A DNA stretch of 64,000 nucleotides. Origin: Escherichia coli. GTDB taxonomy: Bacteria > Pseudomonadota > Gammaproteobacteria > Enterobacterales > Enterobacteriaceae. The stretch is from the NCBI RefSeq assembly GCF_024700885.2, contig NZ_CP117016.1, one strand, 5' to 3'. Below the pieces are notes generated by a model. That model was not told the DNA's origin. It made no database searches and saw only the letters and a list, made by a program, of their open reading frames with translations. Positions 25,570-42,134 of the stretch are shown here, one piece after another (the stretch's first letter is position 1; each line of letters opens with the position of its first letter). The position numbers and the translations under genes were made by a program.

Positions 25570-25646
25570 GTGGCATTAGCTCAGCTGGACAGAGCAACCG
25601 CCTTCTAAGCGGTTGGTCGCAGGTTCGAATCCTGCATGCCACGCCA
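25570..25646 (+). tRNA. tRNA-Arg (anticodon UCU), phage-encoded
   Basis: Perfect 7-bp acceptor stem GTGGCAT/ATGCCAC, D-arm GCTC..GAGC, anticodon loop CTTCTAA, T-loop GGTTCGAATCC, discriminator G and CCA. Confidence 0.9.
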
Positions 25647-33132: not shown

Positions 33133-33929
33133 GCTTCAGGGCTGTTCCAGTGCGGAACGTTGTTATCAGGTAATGTTGATTGCTTCTGTCTGCTAATCTG
33201 CAGCCGCCTTGCCAGCTTCTGCTCCCACTGTGCCTGATGGTATGCCTTACCCTCAGCCATCCAGTAAATTCTGAACTCTGCAAGTTCCTGTGCCGTTGGC
33301 AGACTGTCCAGGTAGATCCCCTGCAATGAGCTTTTCCGAAGAAAGTCATCTGATGGCTGCCATTGTTCATGCATGACAAATTTTCCTAATTGCCCTGGTC
33401 CACCAGGAGGAACAAAGTTATTCATCACGGCGTTGTTTGCTCCGGGGTCATGAGGCACAGAATCCCCGCTTTTTGTCCTGCTCTCCCTCTCTTGGTTAAA
33501 TGACTGGTTATATGACTGGTTCTGGATCCCGTTTTTGGGATCATTCAACATCCCGTTTTTGGGATCATTCAACATCCCGTTTTTGGGTATATTCCCGTTT
33601 TCGGGAACATTACCGTTTTCGGGTTCATTACGTCCTTCTAGGTTGCCTTTAATGTTCCCTTTTTTGGTTATATTAAGAGAGAAAACCCGCACTCTTTTCG
33701 TCGCTCCCTTTCTCTCTCCGGTATCTGAAATAAGCCCCATTTTCATGAGCGATATAAGCCCGGCCTGCACGGTTTTTTTATTCAGGCAAGTGTCTTTAAC
33801 GAGGCGTTCTATGCTGGGGTAGCAGAGGTTATATTCATCGGCTCTGTCAGCCATCGAGAGCAGTATGAGCTTTAATGACGAGCTACCTGGATCTGTCTCC
33901 CAGGCCCAATCTGTTGCATGTCTGCTCAT
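33114..33929 (-). CDS. replication initiator O-like protein
   Basis: Precedes P; N-terminal HTH-like region; central Asn/Pro/Gly-rich repeats encoded by the iterons. Confidence 0.7.
   Translation of the reverse strand: MSRHATDWAWETDPGSSSLKLILLSMADRADEYNLCYPSIERLVKDTCLNKKTVQAGLISLMKMGLISDTGERKGATKRVRVFSLNITKKGNIKGNLEGRNEPENGNVPENGNIPKNGMLNDPKNGMLNDPKNGIQNQSYNQSFNQERESRTKSGDSVPHDPGANNAVMNNFVPPGGPGQLGKFVMHEQWQPSDDFLRKSSLQGIYLDSLPTAQELAEFRIYWMAEGKAYHQAQWEQKLARRLQISRQKQSTLPDNNVPHWNSPEAWEDFL
33527..33640. repeat. origin-of-replication iterons inside the O gene
   Basis: About five direct repeats of ~23 bp (ATCCCGTTTTTGGGATCATTCAAC and CCGTTTTCGGG variants) followed by an AT-rich tract. Confidence 0.7.
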
Positions 33930-34680: not shown

Positions 34681-35265
34681 ATGAAAAGTATCCAAGACGT
34701 CCGCAGGCAAAATCTCAACGACTTGATCGACCGTGAATTCAATGGTGTTCAGACGCGGATGGCTGAAAAACTTGGAACTCAGGCAAATCTGGTAAACCGC
34801 TGGGCTCTTGGCAAGAAGGTTATCGGCGACCAGGTTGCGCGAAAAATTGAAGCTGCCGCCAATAAACCACGTAACTGGCTTGATATCGATCGCTCGCTTT
34901 CTCAGGAGGGTTTTCAGCCTGTCGGACCAAGCGACATTGGTCAGCTGGCGGCTCACAACCTGGAACGCTGGATGAGCGAAAGCCGCGACCTTTCAACACA
35001 GGGAAAACTTCACCGCGCATCCGGCGTCGCCCAAGTGACAATCAGCCGCCTGTTAAACAATGAGGTCAGCGTTTCCATTTCCACCCTGGAGAATGTTGCA
35101 TCTGCATTCGGACGTCACGGATATGAACTACTGATTCACCCGCACGACCCTGCAACTATCAACTATGACCGCTCGCGCTACGCATTGTTACCTGAAACCG
35201 AGAAAGCAAAGATCGAAAGTTACATTGAATTTGTCATCAACCAGAACGAAAAAAACAAACAATAA
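34681..35265 (+). CDS. prophage repressor (CI-like), two HTH domains, no S24 peptidase domain
   Basis: HTH-like segments near residues 20-60 and 110-150; no Ala-Gly / Ser-Lys autocleavage motifs seen; divergent from the cro-like gene. Confidence 0.65.
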   Translation: MKSIQDVRRQNLNDLIDREFNGVQTRMAEKLGTQANLVNRWALGKKVIGDQVARKIEAAANKPRNWLDIDRSLSQEGFQPVGPSDIGQLAAHNLERWMSESRDLSTQGKLHRASGVAQVTISRLLNNEVSVSISTLENVASAFGRHGYELLIHPHDPATINYDRSRYALLPETEKAKIESYIEFVINQNEKNKQ

Positions 35266-35286
35266 AATCATATTTTTCAGTAAGTA

Positions 35287-35311
35287 AGCCGCCAAATGGC
35301 GGCTTTTTTAT
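35287..35311 (+). terminator. rho-independent terminator after repressor gene
   Basis: AGCCGCC-aaat-GGCGGCT followed by T6. Confidence 0.65.
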
Positions 35312-35322
35312 TGTCTATTTAA

Positions 35323-35399
35323 TTACCTTGCAGGTAATTTTTTCAACTCATACCTATTGACATCAAACCAAATACGCATAATCATTACCTCAACGGTAA
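35323..35399. promoter_or_regulatory. two operators TTACC-TTGCA-GGTAA (35323-35337) and TTACC-TCAAC-GGTAA (35385-35399), OL-like
   Basis: Same palindrome family; upstream of the early-left operon. Confidence 0.55.
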
Positions 35400-35418: not shown

Positions 35419-35571
35419 ATGCAGTGGAAAATCATCAACGGTTGGTACTGCGTTACTGCATGCGGATTCATGAGCTGGAAGTTCCGCACCTTACAGGAAG
35501 GCATTAAGTGGGCTTTCGTCAGCAAAGAAGCTCGCGATGTGGCCAACGATAACGAGATATGGGAGGGCTGA
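35419..35571 (+). CDS. small hypothetical protein (50 aa)
   Basis: GAGGT Shine-Dalgarno; first ORF after the OL-like operators; not in the supplied ORF track (under 60 aa). Confidence 0.3.
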   Translation: MQWKIINGWYCVTACGFMSWKFRTLQEGIKWAFVSKEARDVANDNEIWEG

Positions 35572-35573
35572 TA

Positions 35574-35873
35574 ATGAACGTTAATCAGCAGCAAAATCTT
35601 CAAAAAATCATGCTGGCATTCGACAAGGACTACCGCCTGTCAGAACAGCTATATGACCGACAAGTTGAACTGATCGAAAGCATCCGGCTTCATCAACTAG
35701 CCTCAACTTTCGACGCTGTAACAGGTAAAGGCGTTCGCCAGGAAGTACTGGAGGCCGCTAAAGACAGTCCAGAGTTCGAAGAACTGATGGATTCCTACCG
35801 GCGCGAGGCAATGGCAATTATCGCCCGCTGGGATCTGGCTGATCAGCTTGATGGGCAGAGGGACGCGGCATGA
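35574..35873 (+). CDS. hypothetical early protein (99 aa)
   Basis: GGGAGGG Shine-Dalgarno; start at MNVNQQQ. Confidence 0.5.
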   Translation: MNVNQQQNLQKIMLAFDKDYRLSEQLYDRQVELIESIRLHQLASTFDAVTGKGVRQEVLEAAKDSPEFEELMDSYRREAMAIIARWDLADQLDGQRDAA

Positions 35874-36691
35874 AGCCGGGAATTTATTTCGACATCAGCA
35901 ACGAAGACTACCACGCCGGGGACGGCGTGAGTAAGTCGCAACTGGACATGGTTGCCAAGAATCCGGCGCTTCTTAAATGGGTTCAGGCAGCACCAGAAGA
36001 CGAAGAGAAAAAGTCTGCACTGGATATGGGAACCGCATTGCACTGTCTGCTTCTGGAGCCTGGAGAATTCAACAAACGCTTCATTGTTTCACCGAAATTC
36101 GATCGTCGGACGAAACAAGGTAAAGCTGACGAAGAAGCATTTCTTCGTGATGTAGCGGATATGGGGATTACGGTACTTGATGCCGAGCAGTGGCGGAAAC
36201 TGGAGCTGATGCGTGATAGCGCAATGGCTCACCCGGCGGCACGCTGGATGCTGGAAGCACCTGGTTACTGCGAAGCATCAATGTACTGGAATGATGAAGA
36301 GACTGGTGAGTTGTGCCGCATTCGTCCAGACAAATGGCTGAACGAGCACAACGTGATCGTCGACGTGAAAAAGGTTGCAGATATGGACCGTTTTGCACGC
36401 CACATCGAGGAATTCCGCTACCACGTGCAGGACGCAATGTACCGCGAAGGAGCGATGAGGGTTACTGGTCAGTCGCATGGTTTTTTCTTTCTTGCCGTGA
36501 GCGAAAGCATTGATTGTGGTCGGTATCCGGTACGCGTGTTCGAGCTGGATGCGCCGGATGTCGATGCCGGGCACGCTCTGTTCCGCCGGGATCTGAATAC
36601 CTATCACGAATGCCGCATCAATGATGAATGGGGCGGCGTGGAAATTATTAAACGCCCTGACTGGGCACGTAAACAGGATATGTACGTATGA
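35870..36691 (+). CDS. phage exonuclease (YqaJ/RecE-like PD-(D/E)xK recombination nuclease)
   Basis: Precedes a RecT-like gene with 4-nt overlap; conserved acidic and Lys residues (DVKK) of PD-(D/E)xK nucleases. Confidence 0.6.
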   Translation: MKPGIYFDISNEDYHAGDGVSKSQLDMVAKNPALLKWVQAAPEDEEKKSALDMGTALHCLLLEPGEFNKRFIVSPKFDRRTKQGKADEEAFLRDVADMGITVLDAEQWRKLELMRDSAMAHPAARWMLEAPGYCEASMYWNDEETGELCRIRPDKWLNEHNVIVDVKKVADMDRFARHIEEFRYHVQDAMYREGAMRVTGQSHGFFFLAVSESIDCGRYPVRVFELDAPDVDAGHALFRRDLNTYHECRINDEWGGVEIIKRPDWARKQDMYV

Positions 36692-37569
36692 GCAATGATA
36701 TCGCAATCACATCACAACCAGGCGCAACTGTAGGTACTGCTGCGGCAATCTTCAGCCCGGAGGGCATGAATCAACTGGTGCGTTTCGCGGAGTTGATGTC
36801 ACAAAGCAAAGCGACTGTACCGAAACATCTTGAAGGCAAACCTGCCGATTGTCTGGCGGTGACCATGCAGGCGGCACAGTGGGGAATGAACCCTTTCGCC
36901 GTGGCGCAGAAAACGCATGTGGTAAACGGAACGTTAGGCTACGAAGCACAGTTGGTAAACGCGGTCGTATCCTCTTCCAGCCTGCTAGCGACACGCCTGA
37001 ATTATCGCTGGAGCGGTGACTGGTCGAATGTTAACGGCAAAACAGATAAATCACCGAATCTGACGGTAACTGTGTCAGCAGTTCTTAAAGGAGAAGCAGA
37101 ACCCCGTGAGCTTACCATCAGTATGGCGCAAGCCGGAGTGCGTAACTCTCCATTGTGGGAACAGGATCCGCGCCAGCAGCTTGCCTATCTTTGCACGAAA
37201 CGATGGGCTCGCCTGCACGCTCCTGATGTACTTCTCGGTGTTTACACCCCTGACGAATTACAGGAAACGGCACCGCGCGTTGAGCGAGACATTACTCCGC
37301 AAACGACTACTGCTGCGGGAATGAACAGTCTGATCAACGCTAAACCAGTGAAAAAGCCTGATGAGCAAACGCGTAAAGCGGATAGCCGTGATCCAGAAGA
37401 AATGCTGATGGCCTTTACCAGCGCAGCGATGAATTACAGCACTGTCTCCGAACTGGATAAGGCTTACAAATACATTGCACAAAAACTTTCAGATGATGAC
37501 GAACTGCTGGCAAAAGCCACCGACGTTTACAGCGTTCGTCGGGAAGAATTAAACGAAACATCTATGTAA
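36688..37569 (+). CDS. recT: RecT-like single-strand annealing protein
   Basis: Family-typical N-terminal region; paired with the exonuclease gene. Confidence 0.7.
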   Translation: MSNDIAITSQPGATVGTAAAIFSPEGMNQLVRFAELMSQSKATVPKHLEGKPADCLAVTMQAAQWGMNPFAVAQKTHVVNGTLGYEAQLVNAVVSSSSLLATRLNYRWSGDWSNVNGKTDKSPNLTVTVSAVLKGEAEPRELTISMAQAGVRNSPLWEQDPRQQLAYLCTKRWARLHAPDVLLGVYTPDELQETAPRVERDITPQTTTAAGMNSLINAKPVKKPDEQTRKADSRDPEEMLMAFTSAAMNYSTVSELDKAYKYIAQKLSDDDELLAKATDVYSVRREELNETSM

Positions 37570-37618
37570 CCACCACCGCGGCGCCACGCGCGCCGCACTG
37601 CAACCAAGAGAGGTATTT

Positions 37619-37867
37619 ATGAAAGGTGCATTAGGTAAGAAGGAACTCCTGGCGGTGGTGCCACTGTCATGGAGCACTATCGACCGTATGGAGCGCGCAG
37701 GGGAATTTCCTAAACGCTGGTATATCACCGATAAACGCTGCGCATGGAACCGTGATGAAGTTGAGCGTTGGCTTGATGAACGTCAGGCAGCAAGCCCGGC
37801 AGAGTTCCAGGGTAAAAAACCTCCTGTTCAGCAACGTGTATATCGTCCTGTGAGCAACGCGGCATGA
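37619..37867 (+). CDS. AlpA-like HTH regulator / excisionase-like protein
   Basis: LSWSTIDRMERAGEFPKRWYITDKRCAWNRDEVERWL matches the AlpA/Xis winged-helix pattern. Confidence 0.6.
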   Translation: MKGALGKKELLAVVPLSWSTIDRMERAGEFPKRWYITDKRCAWNRDEVERWLDERQAASPAEFQGKKPPVQQRVYRPVSNAA

Positions 37868-37976
37868 GTGTGCTGCTAAGGCACTGGAGCAAATGGTCAG
37901 GATGGTACTTATTCCTGGCCTCTGTTTCAGCATGGCTTTATCTGCTGGCATTAATTTTCAGAGAGGGTTGGATTAA

Positions 37977-38276
37977 GTGAGAAAGTTAAGCCGACTTGAA
38001 AAATATCACATGAACAAGGTTTCAATGCGCAGCCCTTCAAAGGTTGTTGCCGTTACTCCTGCGGCGATAGAGATCGAAAAACGCGCGATTGAAAGAGAGA
38101 AAAAAGGGCAGTTCCGCATTGCCGCCCACCTTTGGCTTCAGTGTATGGATGTTGCTTCTGGTGATGTTGAACGTGCAAGGATCGCGGTTCGCAGGGACCA
38201 ATGTATCACAAAAGGTAACGGCCTTCGCCGTGGCGACTATAGCGGCATAGGATGTTGTGGGGTGGTTTATGACTAA
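37977..38276 (+). CDS. hypothetical protein
   Basis: ORF between alpA-like and methyltransferase genes. Confidence 0.4.
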   Translation: MRKLSRLEKYHMNKVSMRSPSKVVAVTPAAIEIEKRAIEREKKGQFRIAAHLWLQCMDVASGDVERARIAVRRDQCITKGNGLRRGDYSGIGCCGVVYD

Positions 38277-38919
38277 GAAATACACACTAATCTATGCAGA
38301 TCCACCCTGGGCATACCGGGACAAAGCCACAGATGGTAATCGCGGTGCCGGTTTTAAATATCCGGTTATGAGTGTGCTGGATATCTGCCGCCTTCCTGTG
38401 TGGGATTTGGCCGGTGAAAACTGTCTGTTGGCCATGTGGTGGGTGCCAACACAACCACTCGAAGCACTAAAAGTTGTTGAAGCCTGGGGATTCCGTCTGA
38501 TGACCATGAAGGGCTTCACGTGGATAAAATGTGGTAGTCGACAACCAGATAAACTGGTTATGGGGATGGGACACATGACTCGCGCCAACAGTGAAGATTG
38601 CCTGTTTGCGGTAAAGGGAAAACTACCTCCGCGCATTAATGCAGGTATCGTTCAGTCATTTACCGCACCGCGGCTTGAGCATTCAAGAAAACCAGATGTC
38701 GTTCGTGAAAAACTTGTGCAATTGTTAGGCGATGTTTCTCGCATTGAACTGTTCGCCCGCCAGTCGTCTCATGGCTTCGATGTTTGGGGTAATCAGTGCG
38801 AAGACCCGGCAGTGCAACTACACCCAGGATACGCGTTGGATATTGCCGGATTAACAAATGCATTCAGCAATGCTCCGCTGTCACCAACAGACAACCAGGG
38901 GCGGGAGCGTGCAGCATGA
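38269..38919 (+). CDS. MT-A70-family N6-adenine DNA methyltransferase (orphan)
   Basis: Catalytic motif IYADPPWAY; no adjacent restriction gene. Confidence 0.8.
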   Translation: MTKKYTLIYADPPWAYRDKATDGNRGAGFKYPVMSVLDICRLPVWDLAGENCLLAMWWVPTQPLEALKVVEAWGFRLMTMKGFTWIKCGSRQPDKLVMGMGHMTRANSEDCLFAVKGKLPPRINAGIVQSFTAPRLEHSRKPDVVREKLVQLLGDVSRIELFARQSSHGFDVWGNQCEDPAVQLHPGYALDIAGLTNAFSNAPLSPTDNQGRERAA

Positions 38920-39110
38920 ACAGGGCATCACCAGCAGATTTAAGGAAATGCCTTGAAACTGCAAACATGCTTGCACACAGCGGGATCAGGTTTGTTCCAA
39001 TTCCCGCTGTCACTGATGCTGAATTTGCAACACTGTCAGCAATATTCACAGATAAAATTGAATCACTGGCAGCAGAAGCCGAGATGGAAGAAAATCAGCA
39101 GAACTATTAA
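38916..39110 (+). CDS. small hypothetical protein (64 aa)
   Basis: ATG overlaps methyltransferase stop (ATGA). Confidence 0.4.
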   Translation: MNRASPADLRKCLETANMLAHSGIRFVPIPAVTDAEFATLSAIFTDKIESLAAEAEMEENQQNY

Positions 39111-39113
39111 ACG

Positions 39114-40364
39114 TTATTCCCCCGCCATCCACTTCTCAAACTTCGACGGGGAGAACGGAATCAGATCCGTATGCTCCCCGTTAATCCAGGAATCAATCAT
39201 ATCGGCCCACTGCTGCAACATGTAGGCGCGCTGTCTGGCGTATTCCGCTTTGTTATATACGGCGCGCACACCTTTCTGCTCATGTGCCAGAGCCTTTTCA
39301 ATCCAGTCTGAAGGATAACCAGCCTCATGCAACAACGTACTGGCTGTACGGCGCATATCGTGTACGGTGAAGTCCTGAATATGCTCACCATCTTCATTTA
39401 TTATTTTCACCGTTCTGTCGATCAGAGAGTTCAGCGCGGCATTAGATAATGGCTTCCGGAAATTGTAACGACCAGGAACCAGATATTCACTTCCACCAGC
39501 GCACATCTGCAACCCGACCAATATATCCTGAACCTGTTTAGGCAGGTAAATAACATGCGCCCGGCTTCCCTTCATGCGGTCTGAAGGAATTGTCCATGTC
39601 CATTTTTTAAAATCTATTTCATCCCACGTTGCATTGGTGAATTCGCCCTTACGAACCATAGTGATAAGCACCAGTTTTAAAGCCATTTTCATAGTGCCCA
39701 TAGCACCAATGGCATCCAACGTGCGGAAGAACAGGCCAATTTCTTCTGGTGTCAGTGTTCGCTCTCGTGGTTTAAATATGGCGATAGACGAAGGTTTAAT
39801 GTCAGCCGCAGGATTAAACAAACCATGACCACGGTCATTGGCGTGACGGTATACGCTGCTGATGATCTCCCTGGCCTGTACTGCTGTTGCCCGACCACCG
39901 CGTTCGACAATCCGGTCACACAAATCACGAACCATCGATGTGGTAATTTCAGCCATCATTTTGTTGCCAAGAACCGGAAGTATGTCACGGTCGATCACCG
40001 CCTGCTTCATTGCGCGGGTACTGTCAGCCAGGATGACGTGTTTCATATAACTGTCGGTATGTACCGCAAACGTCTCGGCACCACGAATTTTTTTGATACC
40101 GTCACGTTTAGCCGCAGCCGGCGACTGGCCTGCTTTAAGCAGCTTCTTTGCAGCAATCAGTTCTTCTCGCGCTTCTGCCAGGCTGATACCGTCACGCCCA
40201 TACTGCCCGATTACCAGTGTTTCGCGGCGACCGTTGATACGGTAGTCATAGCGAAACGAGACCGTGCCTGACGTAAGCACAGCTACATACAGCCCGTCAC
40301 GATCGGAGACCTTGTACAGTTTGTCCTGCGGCTTGAGGTTTTTTAATTTTGTATCGGTAAGCAC
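39114..40364 (-). CDS. int: tyrosine integrase (P4-like, N-terminal DUF4102-type arm-binding domain)
   Basis: 416 aa; C-terminal catalytic region with HDMRRT and terminal Tyr-containing segment; adjacent to attR. Confidence 0.9.
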   Translation of the reverse strand: MLTDTKLKNLKPQDKLYKVSDRDGLYVAVLTSGTVSFRYDYRINGRRETLVIGQYGRDGISLAEAREELIAAKKLLKAGQSPAAAKRDGIKKIRGAETFAVHTDSYMKHVILADSTRAMKQAVIDRDILPVLGNKMMAEITTSMVRDLCDRIVERGGRATAVQAREIISSVYRHANDRGHGLFNPAADIKPSSIAIFKPRERTLTPEEIGLFFRTLDAIGAMGTMKMALKLVLITMVRKGEFTNATWDEIDFKKWTWTIPSDRMKGSRAHVIYLPKQVQDILVGLQMCAGGSEYLVPGRYNFRKPLSNAALNSLIDRTVKIINEDGEHIQDFTVHDMRRTASTLLHEAGYPSDWIEKALAHEQKGVRAVYNKAEYARQRAYMLQQWADMIDSWINGEHTDLIPFSPSKFEKWMAGE

Positions 40365-40406
40365 AATTCACCCGTATAGAAACCATTTTCATGACGGTAT
40401 GAGAGT

Positions 40407-40431
40407 ATACCTTTAAGGTAATACCGTCACC
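40407..40431. promoter_or_regulatory. integrase upstream region: ATACC-TTTAA-GGTAA palindrome overlapping putative arm-type site ATACCGTCACC
   Basis: 11-mer ATACCGTCACC also present at 1627-1637 near attL. Confidence 0.4.
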
Positions 40432-40553
40432 TGTACCGCCGAAAAATATGGTGTAGAGTGAATAGAAATGAATACATAAAAACAAAAACCCCCTGCAAAA
40501 ACAGAGGGTTGAGTTGGCATCTGAATAGGAATGATTTGCTATGAGTTAGCTGT

Positions 40554-40571
40554 TAATCATTCCCACTCAAT
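40554..40571. repeat. attR core direct repeat (AATCATTCCCACTCAAT) overlapping guaA stop codon
   Basis: Matches 1538-1555 with one mismatch. Confidence 0.6.
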
Positions 40572-42134
40572 GGTAGCTGGCGGCTTGCCGCTGATGTCAT
40601 ACACCACGCGGGAAATACCGTTCACTTCATTGATAATGCGGTTGGAAACGCGACCGAGGAAATCGTACGGCAGATGCGCCCAGTGTGCGGTCATAAAGTC
40701 GATGGTTTCGACAGCACGCAGAGAAACAACCCAGTCATACTTACGACCATCGCCCATTACACCAACGGAACGTACCGGCAGGAAGACGGTGAACGCCTGG
40801 CTGACTTTGTCGTACAGGTCCGCTTTACGCAGTTCTTCAATAAAGATGGCGTCAGCACGGCGCAGCAGGTCGCAGTACTCTTTCTTCACTTCGCCCAGTA
40901 CACGAACGCCGAGGCCTGGTCCCGGGAACGGGTGACGGTACAGCATGTCGTACGGCAGGCCCAGCTCCAGACCAATCTTACGCACTTCGTCTTTGAACAG
41001 CTCTTTCAGCGGTTCAACCAGCCCCATCTTCATCTCTTTCGGCAGGCCGCCCACGTTGTGGTGAGATTTGATGACGTGTGCTTTACCGGTTGCAGACGCC
41101 GCAGATTCGATAACGTCAGGGTAGATAGTACCCTGCGCCAGCCACTTCACGTCTTCCAGTTTCAGCGCTTCTTCATCGAATACTTCAACGAAAACGCGCC
41201 CGATGATTTTACGTTTTGCTTCCGGATCGTTTTCGCCGGCCAACGCTGACAGGAAGCGATCTTCTGCCGGAACGTGAACAATGTTCAGACCAAAGTGATC
41301 GCCAAACATATCCAGAACCTGCTCTGCTTCGTTGAGACGCAGCAGGCCGTTGTCGACGAATACGCAAGTCAGGTTTTTACCGATAGCGCGGTGCAGCAGC
41401 ATTGCGGTTACGGAGGAATCCACACCACCAGAGAGGCCGAGGATGACTTTATCGTCGCCTACCTGCTCGCGGATGCGAGCTACAGCATCGTCGATAATTT
41501 TCGCTGGCGTCCACAGGGCTTCACACTGGCAGATATCTCGCACAAAGCGCTCCAGCATGCGCATACCCTGGCGGGTGTGAGTCACTTCCGGGTGGAACTG
41601 TACGCCATAGAAGCGTTTTTCTTCGTTAGCCATAATGGCAAACGGGCAGCTTTCGGTGCTGGCTACGGTGACGAAGTCGGACGGGATAGCGGTAACTTTA
41701 TCGCCGTGGCTCATCCAGACATCGAGCAGAGGTTTACCGTCTGCGGTCAGAGCATCTTCAATACCGCGAACCAGTGCGCTGTCGTTTACGACTTCAACCT
41801 GCGCGTAGCCAAATTCACGTTCGTTAGAGGCTTCAACGTGACCGCCCAACTGCATTGCCATGGTCTGCATGCCATAGCAAACGCCGAATACCGGTACGCC
41901 TGCTTCAAAAACATACTGCGGCGCACGCGGGCTGTTTTCTTCGGTGGTGCTTTCCGGGCCGCCGGAAAGAATAATGCCGCTTGGGTTGAAGTCACGAATT
42001 TGTGCTTCTGTCACATCCCACGCCCACAGTTCGCAGTAAACGCCCAGCTCACGCACGCGGCGCGCAACCAGTTGAGTATACTGGGAACCGAAGTCCAGAA
42101 TGAGGATGCGATGCTTATGAATGTTTTCCGTCAT
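40557..42134 (-). CDS. guaA: GMP synthase (glutamine-hydrolysing)
   Basis: 525 aa; class I glutamine amidotransferase N-domain and ATP-pyrophosphatase motif SGGVDSS. Confidence 0.97.

Follow-up and report, generated by a model that had tools for sequence, protein, structure and literature searches.

An orphan MT-A70 adenine methyltransferase, probably directed to GATC, in the early-left operon of a Uetakevirus prophage of Escherichia coli

Small MT-A70 adenine methyltransferases encoded by phages are currently regarded either as Dam-like DNA methylases or as partner-directed rRNA methylases. As to DNA, protein p32 of the Serratia phage BZS1 turned dam- plasmid DNA MboI-resistant and DpnI-sensitive, and gp35 of phage HK639 is 75% identical to this GATC-specific enzyme (PMC7556043). 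M.EcoGV methylates GATC in vivo when overproduced, as stated in a passage of PMC10810198, and is entered as a GATC enzyme in a listing in PMC6602927; M.EfaBMDam of Tn1549 is cited as GATC-specific in a passage of PMC7556043. As to RNA, the enzyme M.EcoPA8orf6770P (gp5) of the Shiga toxin (Stx) 2a phage PA8 was near background on dam- DNA when purified alone; it forms a 1:1 complex with PNB-2, the product of the upstream gene, the preferred substrate of this complex is 16S rRNA, and the gene increases both spontaneous induction and virulence (Gong, Chakraborty, Koudelka, PMC10810198). A preprint links protection of the ribosome from Shiga toxin to the same system (10.1101/2023.09.20.558713). 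Here, we analyze a gene of this family in a chromosomal stretch of 64,000 nt from Escherichia coli (assembly GCF_024700885.2, contig NZ_CP117016.1; below, the window). The gene is located in the interval 35870-38919, for which a first reading of the letters alone (below, the original prediction) had proposed an early-left phage block with a RecE/RecT-like recombination pair, an AlpA-like regulator, and an orphan MT-A70 methyltransferase.

The block has the early-left arrangement that is canonical for the genus Uetakevirus. We hold with good confidence that the interval covers the middle of the repressor-controlled early-left operon of an intact Uetakevirus prophage, and that its orphan MT-A70 enzyme is most likely GATC-directed. 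The four genes named in the original prediction are found at the positions that it gave, each with a family match far beyond chance, and its assignment to the early-left operon of a temperate phage is borne out by synteny with phiV10, epsilon15, and their relatives. The gene order repressor, small open reading frames (ORFs), exonuclease, RecT, AlpA-like, (membrane ORF), PerC-like, (small ORF), methylase, small ORF, integrase is common to phiV10, epsilon15, the Salmonella phage 65FD, and the Klebsiella phage BUCT711. phiV10 (NC_007804, p39-p31) has the same early-left order and block DNA that is 95% identical; the Salmonella phage epsilon15 (NC_004775, gp37-gp28) also has this order but carries a serotype-conversion gene in the place of the DUF1382 gene found here. 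Positions 35870-40600 occur with 100% identity in E. coli MLI114 and EC0026B, in which the RefSeq annotation gives the same genes under the same names, and at least 80% of the block is present in 470 of 5,426 complete E. coli genomes (about 9%). Thus annotated in RefSeq as well as in phage records, the block is ordinary and already known, and the methylase family is partly characterized.

The block is surrounded by about 39 kb with replication, terminase, portal, capsid, tail, acyltransferase, and lysis genes. An 11-bp attachment (att) core, AACAGAGGGTT (no strand assigned), is present in a left copy at 1503-1513 and a right copy at 40500-40510, the latter inside the terminator hairpin of guaA. 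Near-identity to phages of the genus, synteny, complete structural, lysis, and replication modules, and the att sites all place the element in Uetakevirus (phiV10/epsilon15-like phages). Silent inactivation of prophage genes is possible in general and nothing specific points to it here, so that we give hardly any credence to the block being a decaying remnant with genes that no longer function: the reading frames are all intact and tightly coupled, the catalytic motifs are conserved, the prophage genes for replication, packaging, head, tail, and lysis form a complete set, both att copies are present, and the block is 95-98% identical to the plaque-forming isolated phages phiV10, TL-2011b, vB_EcoP_ZX5, phiv142-3, and PAS61.

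The operon extends from 35419 to 39110 on the + strand and comprises about nine tightly packed genes. Read from the sequence, the junctions are all overlaps of 4 nt or 8 nt save one, and the region thus reads as one translationally coupled operon; a promoter scan found no further promoter-like site on the + strand inside it. For the genes gp6-gp5 of phage PA8, an internal promoter is reported. The first two genes, both on the + strand, are ORFs of 50 amino acids (aa) (35419-35571; phrog_898, corresponding to phiV10p39) and 99 aa (35574-35873; phrog_856, corresponding to phiV10p38), and the stop codon of the second overlaps the start codon of the nuclease gene (ATGA). The original prediction listed the four named genes correctly but overlooked three others within or just after the interval: an ORF of 38 aa with one predicted transmembrane helix (37864-37980, + strand; corresponding to phiV10p35 and epsilon15 gp32), which has a 4-nt overlap with both neighbors, the PerC-family gene treated below, and the last gene of the operon, encoding a DUF1382 protein of 64 aa (38916-39110, + strand; PF07131, E = 1.4e-30).

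Upstream of the operon, a terminator-like hairpin (35286-35305, + strand) closes the repressor gene (34681-35265), and phiV10 has an annotated terminator at the homologous place. The region 35323-35399 (+ strand) contains a candidate early-left promoter and two operator-like palindromes. The candidate promoter consists of TTGACA (35357-35362), a 17-nt spacer, and AATCAT (35380-35385), with 10 of 12 matches in the promoter scan, and it is flanked by TTACC-N5-GGTAA palindromes at 35323-35337 and 35385-35399. In the window, this palindrome occurs 12 times versus 1.0 expected, one pair lies within the cro/repressor intergenic region, and its form and placement are the same as those of sites to which the epsilon15 record assigns repressor binding. 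Palindromes of 15 bp each are located at 7998, 25233, 28444, 28462, 32218, 32280, 34563, 34611, 35323, 35385, and 40407; across the prophage, they are often paired about 50-60 bp apart and intergenic. This spread suggests a repressor regulon with several promoters, one of them near the integrase end. Because the candidate promoter is bracketed by the putative repressor operators, the operon should be off in the lysogen, and the block is expected to be silent there and to be expressed upon induction or infection. Derepression would yield a single transcript from the promoter at 35357-35385, which would be translated via the chain of overlapping start and stop codons. The small membrane peptide and the PerC-family helical protein would be made from the same transcript and have no established role.

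The RecE/RecT-like pair named in the original prediction is recovered by family matches as well as by matches to domains of known structure, as a RecE C-terminal-domain nuclease followed by RecT. The first gene (35870-36691, + strand) encodes a RecE-type 5'-3' exonuclease of 273 aa that has the C-terminal PD-(D/E)XK nuclease domain only (PF12684, E = 2.7e-22). It matches positions 606-873 of 877 of the NCBIfam exodeoxyribonuclease VIII model NF007259 (E = 3e-93) and aligns end to end, over 257 residues, with the crystallized RecE nuclease domain (PDB 3H4R, E = 5e-78), and the core residues (His and D...DxK) are in register. It differs from the RecE of the Rac prophage (about 866 aa) in that it represents only the C-terminal third, without the N-terminal region of about 600 residues, and its score of 313 bits is below the equivalog cut-off of 1269 for the full-length architecture. 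As in Rac, a RecT-family gene comes next, with overlapping stop and start codons (ATGA). It encodes a single-strand annealing protein of 293 aa (36688-37569, + strand; PF03837, E = 1.2e-31; phrog_561, E = 1.7e-145), and both the family domain and the adjoining partner exonuclease identify it as RecT. The assignment of the pair as a two-component recombinase of a RecE C-terminal domain and RecT is thus supported by sequence comparison. The minimal nuclease domain would resect double-strand ends in the 5'-3' direction and the cognate RecT would anneal the exposed single strands, in the service of phage recombination and recombination-dependent replication. In epsilon15, and likewise in an Enterobacter prophage, the same slot contains instead a lambda-Exo/YqaJ-type nuclease and a longer RecT, a module exchange that underlines the functional reading of the exonuclease/RecT pair. 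phiV10 differs in that the nuclease and RecT are recorded as one fused ORF (p37). This fusion results from a single additional A within a run of A residues directly ahead of the junction (at about 4160 of the phiV10 stretch compared, corresponding to about 36660-36691 of the window), which could be either a sequencing error in the record or a real frameshift fusion.

The AlpA-family winged-helix protein of 82 aa (37619-37867, + strand) scores 24.2 bits against PF05930 (Phage_AlpA; cut-off 21) and is similar to PDB 8C3T, which is described as an "AlpA family phage regulatory protein" (E = 1.8e-11). The family named in the original prediction therefore holds, but the role of a general regulator is not the most likely one: the protein matches PHROG 66, "excisionase and transcriptional regulator" (E = 2e-16), and its epsilon15 homologue gp33 is annotated as an excisionase. 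On these grounds, the protein more likely serves the P4-type integrase of the same element, as its excisionase or directionality factor, than acts as a general regulator. This tyrosine integrase is encoded 1.2 kb away from the AlpA-like gene at 39114-40364 on the - strand, convergent with the operon, and has Arm-DNA-bind_3, Phage_int_M, and Phage_integrase domains. Most likely, the AlpA-type protein would direct the integrase towards excision.

The methylase gene (38269-38919, + strand) encodes a class beta MT-A70 N6-adenine methyltransferase of 216 aa from an ATG (220 aa from a GTG at 38257). The peptide IYADPPWAY, which the original prediction had quoted for this enzyme, is indeed present, with the catalytic DPPW at residues 11-14, and PF05063 matches over the whole profile (E = 2.4e-21). 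The AlphaFold2 (AF2) model has a predicted local distance difference test (pLDDT) score of 83 and a predicted template modeling (pTM) score of 0.81; in a Foldseek search, it matched METTL3 and the ciliate MTA1 (E about 1e-13, TM score of 0.7 on the target). The enzymes METTL3-METTL14 and MTA1c share the fold and the DPPW catalytic motif with the protein described here, but they are obligate heteromers, each having an inactive second MT-A70 subunit and additional modules for nucleic-acid binding, whereas the block contains no second MT-A70 gene. The orphan status is likewise upheld. PADLOC assigned the methylase to MTase_II with a Type II methyltransferase model (E = 1.2e-77) and found nothing else among the proteins tested, no cognate nuclease is annotated in the prophage, and the flanking genes encode the PerC-family and DUF1382 proteins. 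The neighboring endonuclease that defines a Type II restriction-modification system is missing. The non-specific prophage adenine methylase M.EcoGII was considered as a relative and set aside; it is a 349-aa DPPY enzyme that is treated in its paper as a typical beta-class DNA methyltransferase, with MT-A70 not being mentioned. In an Enterobacter hormaechei prophage at guaA (2498-3717 of the stretch compared), an ORF for a 175-aa PDDEXK_5 nuclease overlaps the start of an MT-A70 gene. This MT-A70 gene is a mosaic, with an HK639-like N-terminal half and a C-terminal half and tail like those of the enzyme described here, and the two genes may represent a restriction-modification pair in a sister prophage.

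The target of the methylase was called unknown in the original prediction, which overlooks the published targets of its close relatives. The enzyme resembles M.EcoGV, BZS1 p32 (with HK639 gp35), and M.EfaBMDam in being a small, single-domain orphan MT-A70 protein of a temperate phage or transposon, encoded near an integrase gene (PMC7556043, PMC6602927); it differs from this GATC-specific group in that its identity to HK639 gp35 is only 45%, the latter protein containing an insertion of 23 residues. The similarity to M.EcoPA8orf6770P is higher, with 83% identity over residues 1-187, and extends to the location of the gene near the integrase end of the early-left operon and to the DUF1382 gene that follows it (PF07131, E = 1e-27 in PA8). 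Therefore, the catalytic subunit of the two-subunit PA8 rRNA methyltransferase has a clear counterpart here, but the two other defining features of that system, the partner gene and the Stx-type C-terminal tail, are missing. PNB-2 is a winged-helix protein of 143 aa, and upstream of the methylase no homologue of it is encoded; this slot is occupied by the non-homologous PerC-family protein, which gave no alignment with PNB-2 in BLASTP. The alignment to M.EcoPA8orf6770P ends at residue 187, and the C-terminal 29 aa are unrelated to the Stx-type tail.

Because three of the small prokaryotic MT-A70 enzymes that have been studied by experiment are GATC-specific and the rRNA-directing PNB-2 is absent, GATC-directed DNA methylation during lytic growth, that is, a Dam-like beta-class activity, is the most likely function. 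The enzyme would transfer a methyl group from S-adenosylmethionine to the N6 of adenine and would act on the rapidly replicating phage DNA in lytic growth, such that GATC sites would stay fully methylated. Full methylation would protect the DNA against GATC-directed restriction in new hosts and would protect recombination intermediates from nicking by MutH. As a further, less likely reading, a Dam-like methylase that is co-expressed with RecE/RecT might blunt MutH-dependent mismatch repair and favor recombination between diverged phage genomes. Several points weigh against a GATC target and against other parts of our explanation. The in vitro data are unfavorable: purified M.EcoPA8orf6770P, the closest studied relative, had near-background activity on dam- DNA and a preference for 16S rRNA in the presence of PNB-2 (PMC10810198). 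In a Dam+ host, a GATC methylase seems superfluous, and the frequency of GATC in the prophage (observed/expected ratio of 0.99) bears no depletion or enrichment signature of a target. The GATC specificity is predicted from relatives, the putative excisionase role is read from family names, and the promoter and operator assignments derive from consensus matches and from analogy to an annotation. The original prediction had proposed methylation calling in the lysogen versus a cured strain; because the operon is likely to be repressed in the lysogen and the Dam of the host masks GATC, such methylomes would probably be uninformative.

The serious rival of a GATC target is that the methylase is primarily a 16S rRNA adenine methyltransferase, like the M.EcoPA8orf6770P-PNB-2 complex, which tunes ribosomes and hence the frequency of spontaneous induction. 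The catalytic core shared with the studied enzyme speaks for it, as do the nearest solved folds, which are those of the RNA m6A writer METTL3 and of MTA1, and the published rRNA preference, induction phenotype, and ribosome protection (PMC10810198; preprint 10.1101/2023.09.20.558713). However, the rRNA preference of the PA8 enzyme needed PNB-2, and the tail that the authors of PMC10810198 proposed as the contact with PNB-2 is replaced here by the unrelated 29-aa tail. In addition, the modified bases were not identified in that study, three other members of the family methylate GATC in DNA (PMC7556043, PMC10810198), and the ribosome-protection rationale does not apply to a prophage that carries no Shiga toxin. 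On balance, we consider an rRNA target rather unlikely, and GATC methylation remains the preferred reading. A related possibility is that the PerC-like protein has replaced PNB-2, acting as an accessory subunit or dedicated regulator of the methylase that sets its substrate choice or activity. This protein of 99 aa (37977-38276, + strand) belongs to a family of small helical proteins (PF06069, E = 6e-7, 30.1 bits versus a cut-off of 22.6; phrog_868, E = 6.5e-62). The PF06069 match is limited to residues 35-80, and the score against the related ANR model, 23.6, is below the cut-off of 32. The AF2 model contains helices at residues 28-82 (pLDDT 85-95). In size, helical nature, and an above-cut-off match to the family model, the protein resembles PerC of enteropathogenic E. 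coli and Pch of the prophages of enterohemorrhagic E. coli; unlike these, it represents a subfamily that adjoins a methylase gene.

Several observations speak for such a partnership. The PerC-like gene overlaps the methylase start by 8 nt, and MT-A70 enzymes are typically heteromers (PMC10810198). A scan of viral contigs retrieved only loci with 96-100% identity, and the diversity survey was thus based on genome contigs, with one genome per species; it comprised 64 MT-A70 loci with 39-97% identity to the methylase described here. In 17 of the 64 loci, a PerC-family ORF precedes the methylase gene in the same orientation, and in none is such an ORF located downstream or on the opposite strand. 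PerC-like proteins formed the largest cluster of immediate upstream neighbors, with 10 loci versus 5, 4, 4, and 3 for the next clusters, and PNB-2 was found in 3 loci. Eight of the 17 PerC loci have Uetakevirus-like contexts; the other nine lack AlpA, integrase, and RecET genes in their flanks, and in five of these nine the PerC-like gene directly adjoins the methylase gene. The PerC-like proteins of distant loci are true homologues (hhalign probability of 97.7%, E = 1.9e-12), and they accompany methylases of both clades, the divergent HK639-like one (42-46% identical to the enzyme described here) and that with 66-97% identity. The pairwise identities of the PerC-like proteins and the methylases correlate with a Spearman coefficient of 0.54 for comparisons that are not independent of one another. 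In an AF2 model of a PerC-linker-methylase fusion, both parts fold well, and the pLDDT of the methylase tail (residues 192-201) rises modestly from 69 for the methylase alone to 85; the fusion has a pTM of 0.62 and gives no interface read-out. The conserved order may also reflect mere inheritance of a two-gene module, 47 of the 64 loci lack a PerC-like ORF within 2.5 kb upstream, and sister prophages have DUF1317, the PDDEXK_5 ORF, or gaps of 150-1500 nt between the two genes. Moreover, members of the PerC/Pch family are known to activate transcription in the absence of any methylase. For the protein encoded here, we see the role of a methylase partner as a tentative and rather unlikely proposal. 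The general form of the idea is that phage MT-A70 enzymes have PerC-family proteins, encoded directly upstream, as accessory partners that are functionally analogous, not homologous, to PNB-2; it appears equally doubtful to us.

Three further lines were followed and given up. Natural PerC-methylase fusion proteins, considered as Rosetta-stone evidence, are rare variants with a 1-nt deletion or an internal deletion and carry little weight. Homology between the PerC-like protein and PNB-2 found no support in BLASTP, nor in hhalign, which gave probabilities of 2.3% with the family profiles and 1.6% via longer intermediates from distant loci; a short R-x-x-C-I match that recurred between the two proteins was not significant. 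A long C-terminal methylase tail does not co-vary with a PerC-like neighbor, as PerC-like genes accompany methylases with several different tails; in HK639, a PNB-2-like gene occurs together with a short tail. In phage HK639 (29152-30400), this PNB-2 homologue, which is 55% identical to PNB-2 of PA8 and annotated as "regulator", is encoded next to the genes for RecT and Gam, two genes ahead of the MT-A70 methylase. Pairing of PNB-2 with a methylase thus extends beyond the Stx phages, whereas the 2023 preprint words it as unique to them.

The recurrence of PerC-like genes directly upstream of MT-A70 genes in unrelated prophage backgrounds is a mildly new observation. We found no discussion of this pair in the literature by a search that was weak and swamped by matches to "percent", so that prior reports are possible. 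If the PerC-like protein is indeed a partner, the "orphan" methylase would be a two-component enzyme in which the PerC-like subunit determines the substrate, be it GATC DNA, other DNA, or RNA, and the PerC-family phage proteins, which are without a known mechanism, would gain a testable role. Irrespective of this, the block is a natural comparison case for the current disagreement over the small phage MT-A70 enzymes. The 83% identical core is combined here with another upstream gene and another C-terminal tail, and a swap of these parts with those of the Stx-phage enzyme could therefore reveal the determinant of substrate choice.

Some features of the surrounding prophage deserve mention. The insertion lies within the guaA terminator hairpin, and at the other junction a terminator-like hairpin (1480-1512) is restored by sequence that the prophage brings along; relatives in Salmonella, Enterobacter, Citrobacter, Klebsiella, and Superficieibacter are also located beside guaA. 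A tRNA-Arg(TCT) gene is present within the prophage at 25570-25646, between the terminase and portal regions. The gene for a DnaT-like replication initiator contains three direct repeats of 24 nt, ATCCCGTTTTTGGGATCATTCAAC, at 33526-33597, the third of which is 75% identical; these repeats are iteron-like and bring to mind the lambdoid origins located inside the O gene.

The most striking item of the window outside the block is a perfect tandem repeat of the 8-nt unit GCACAGCA, with 42.8 copies at 4419-4760. It makes up the 3' third of a gene for a hexapeptide-type acyltransferase (3644-4768, + strand) that is located beside the tail-fibre gene and is carried by only 10 of the 5,426 E. coli genomes. 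The copy number differs between strains, with one unit more in MLI114 and 26 units fewer in AST205, and the C-terminal reading frame consequently differs as well. Possibly, GCACAGCA is a contingency (phase-variable) repeat in a serotype-conversion gene.

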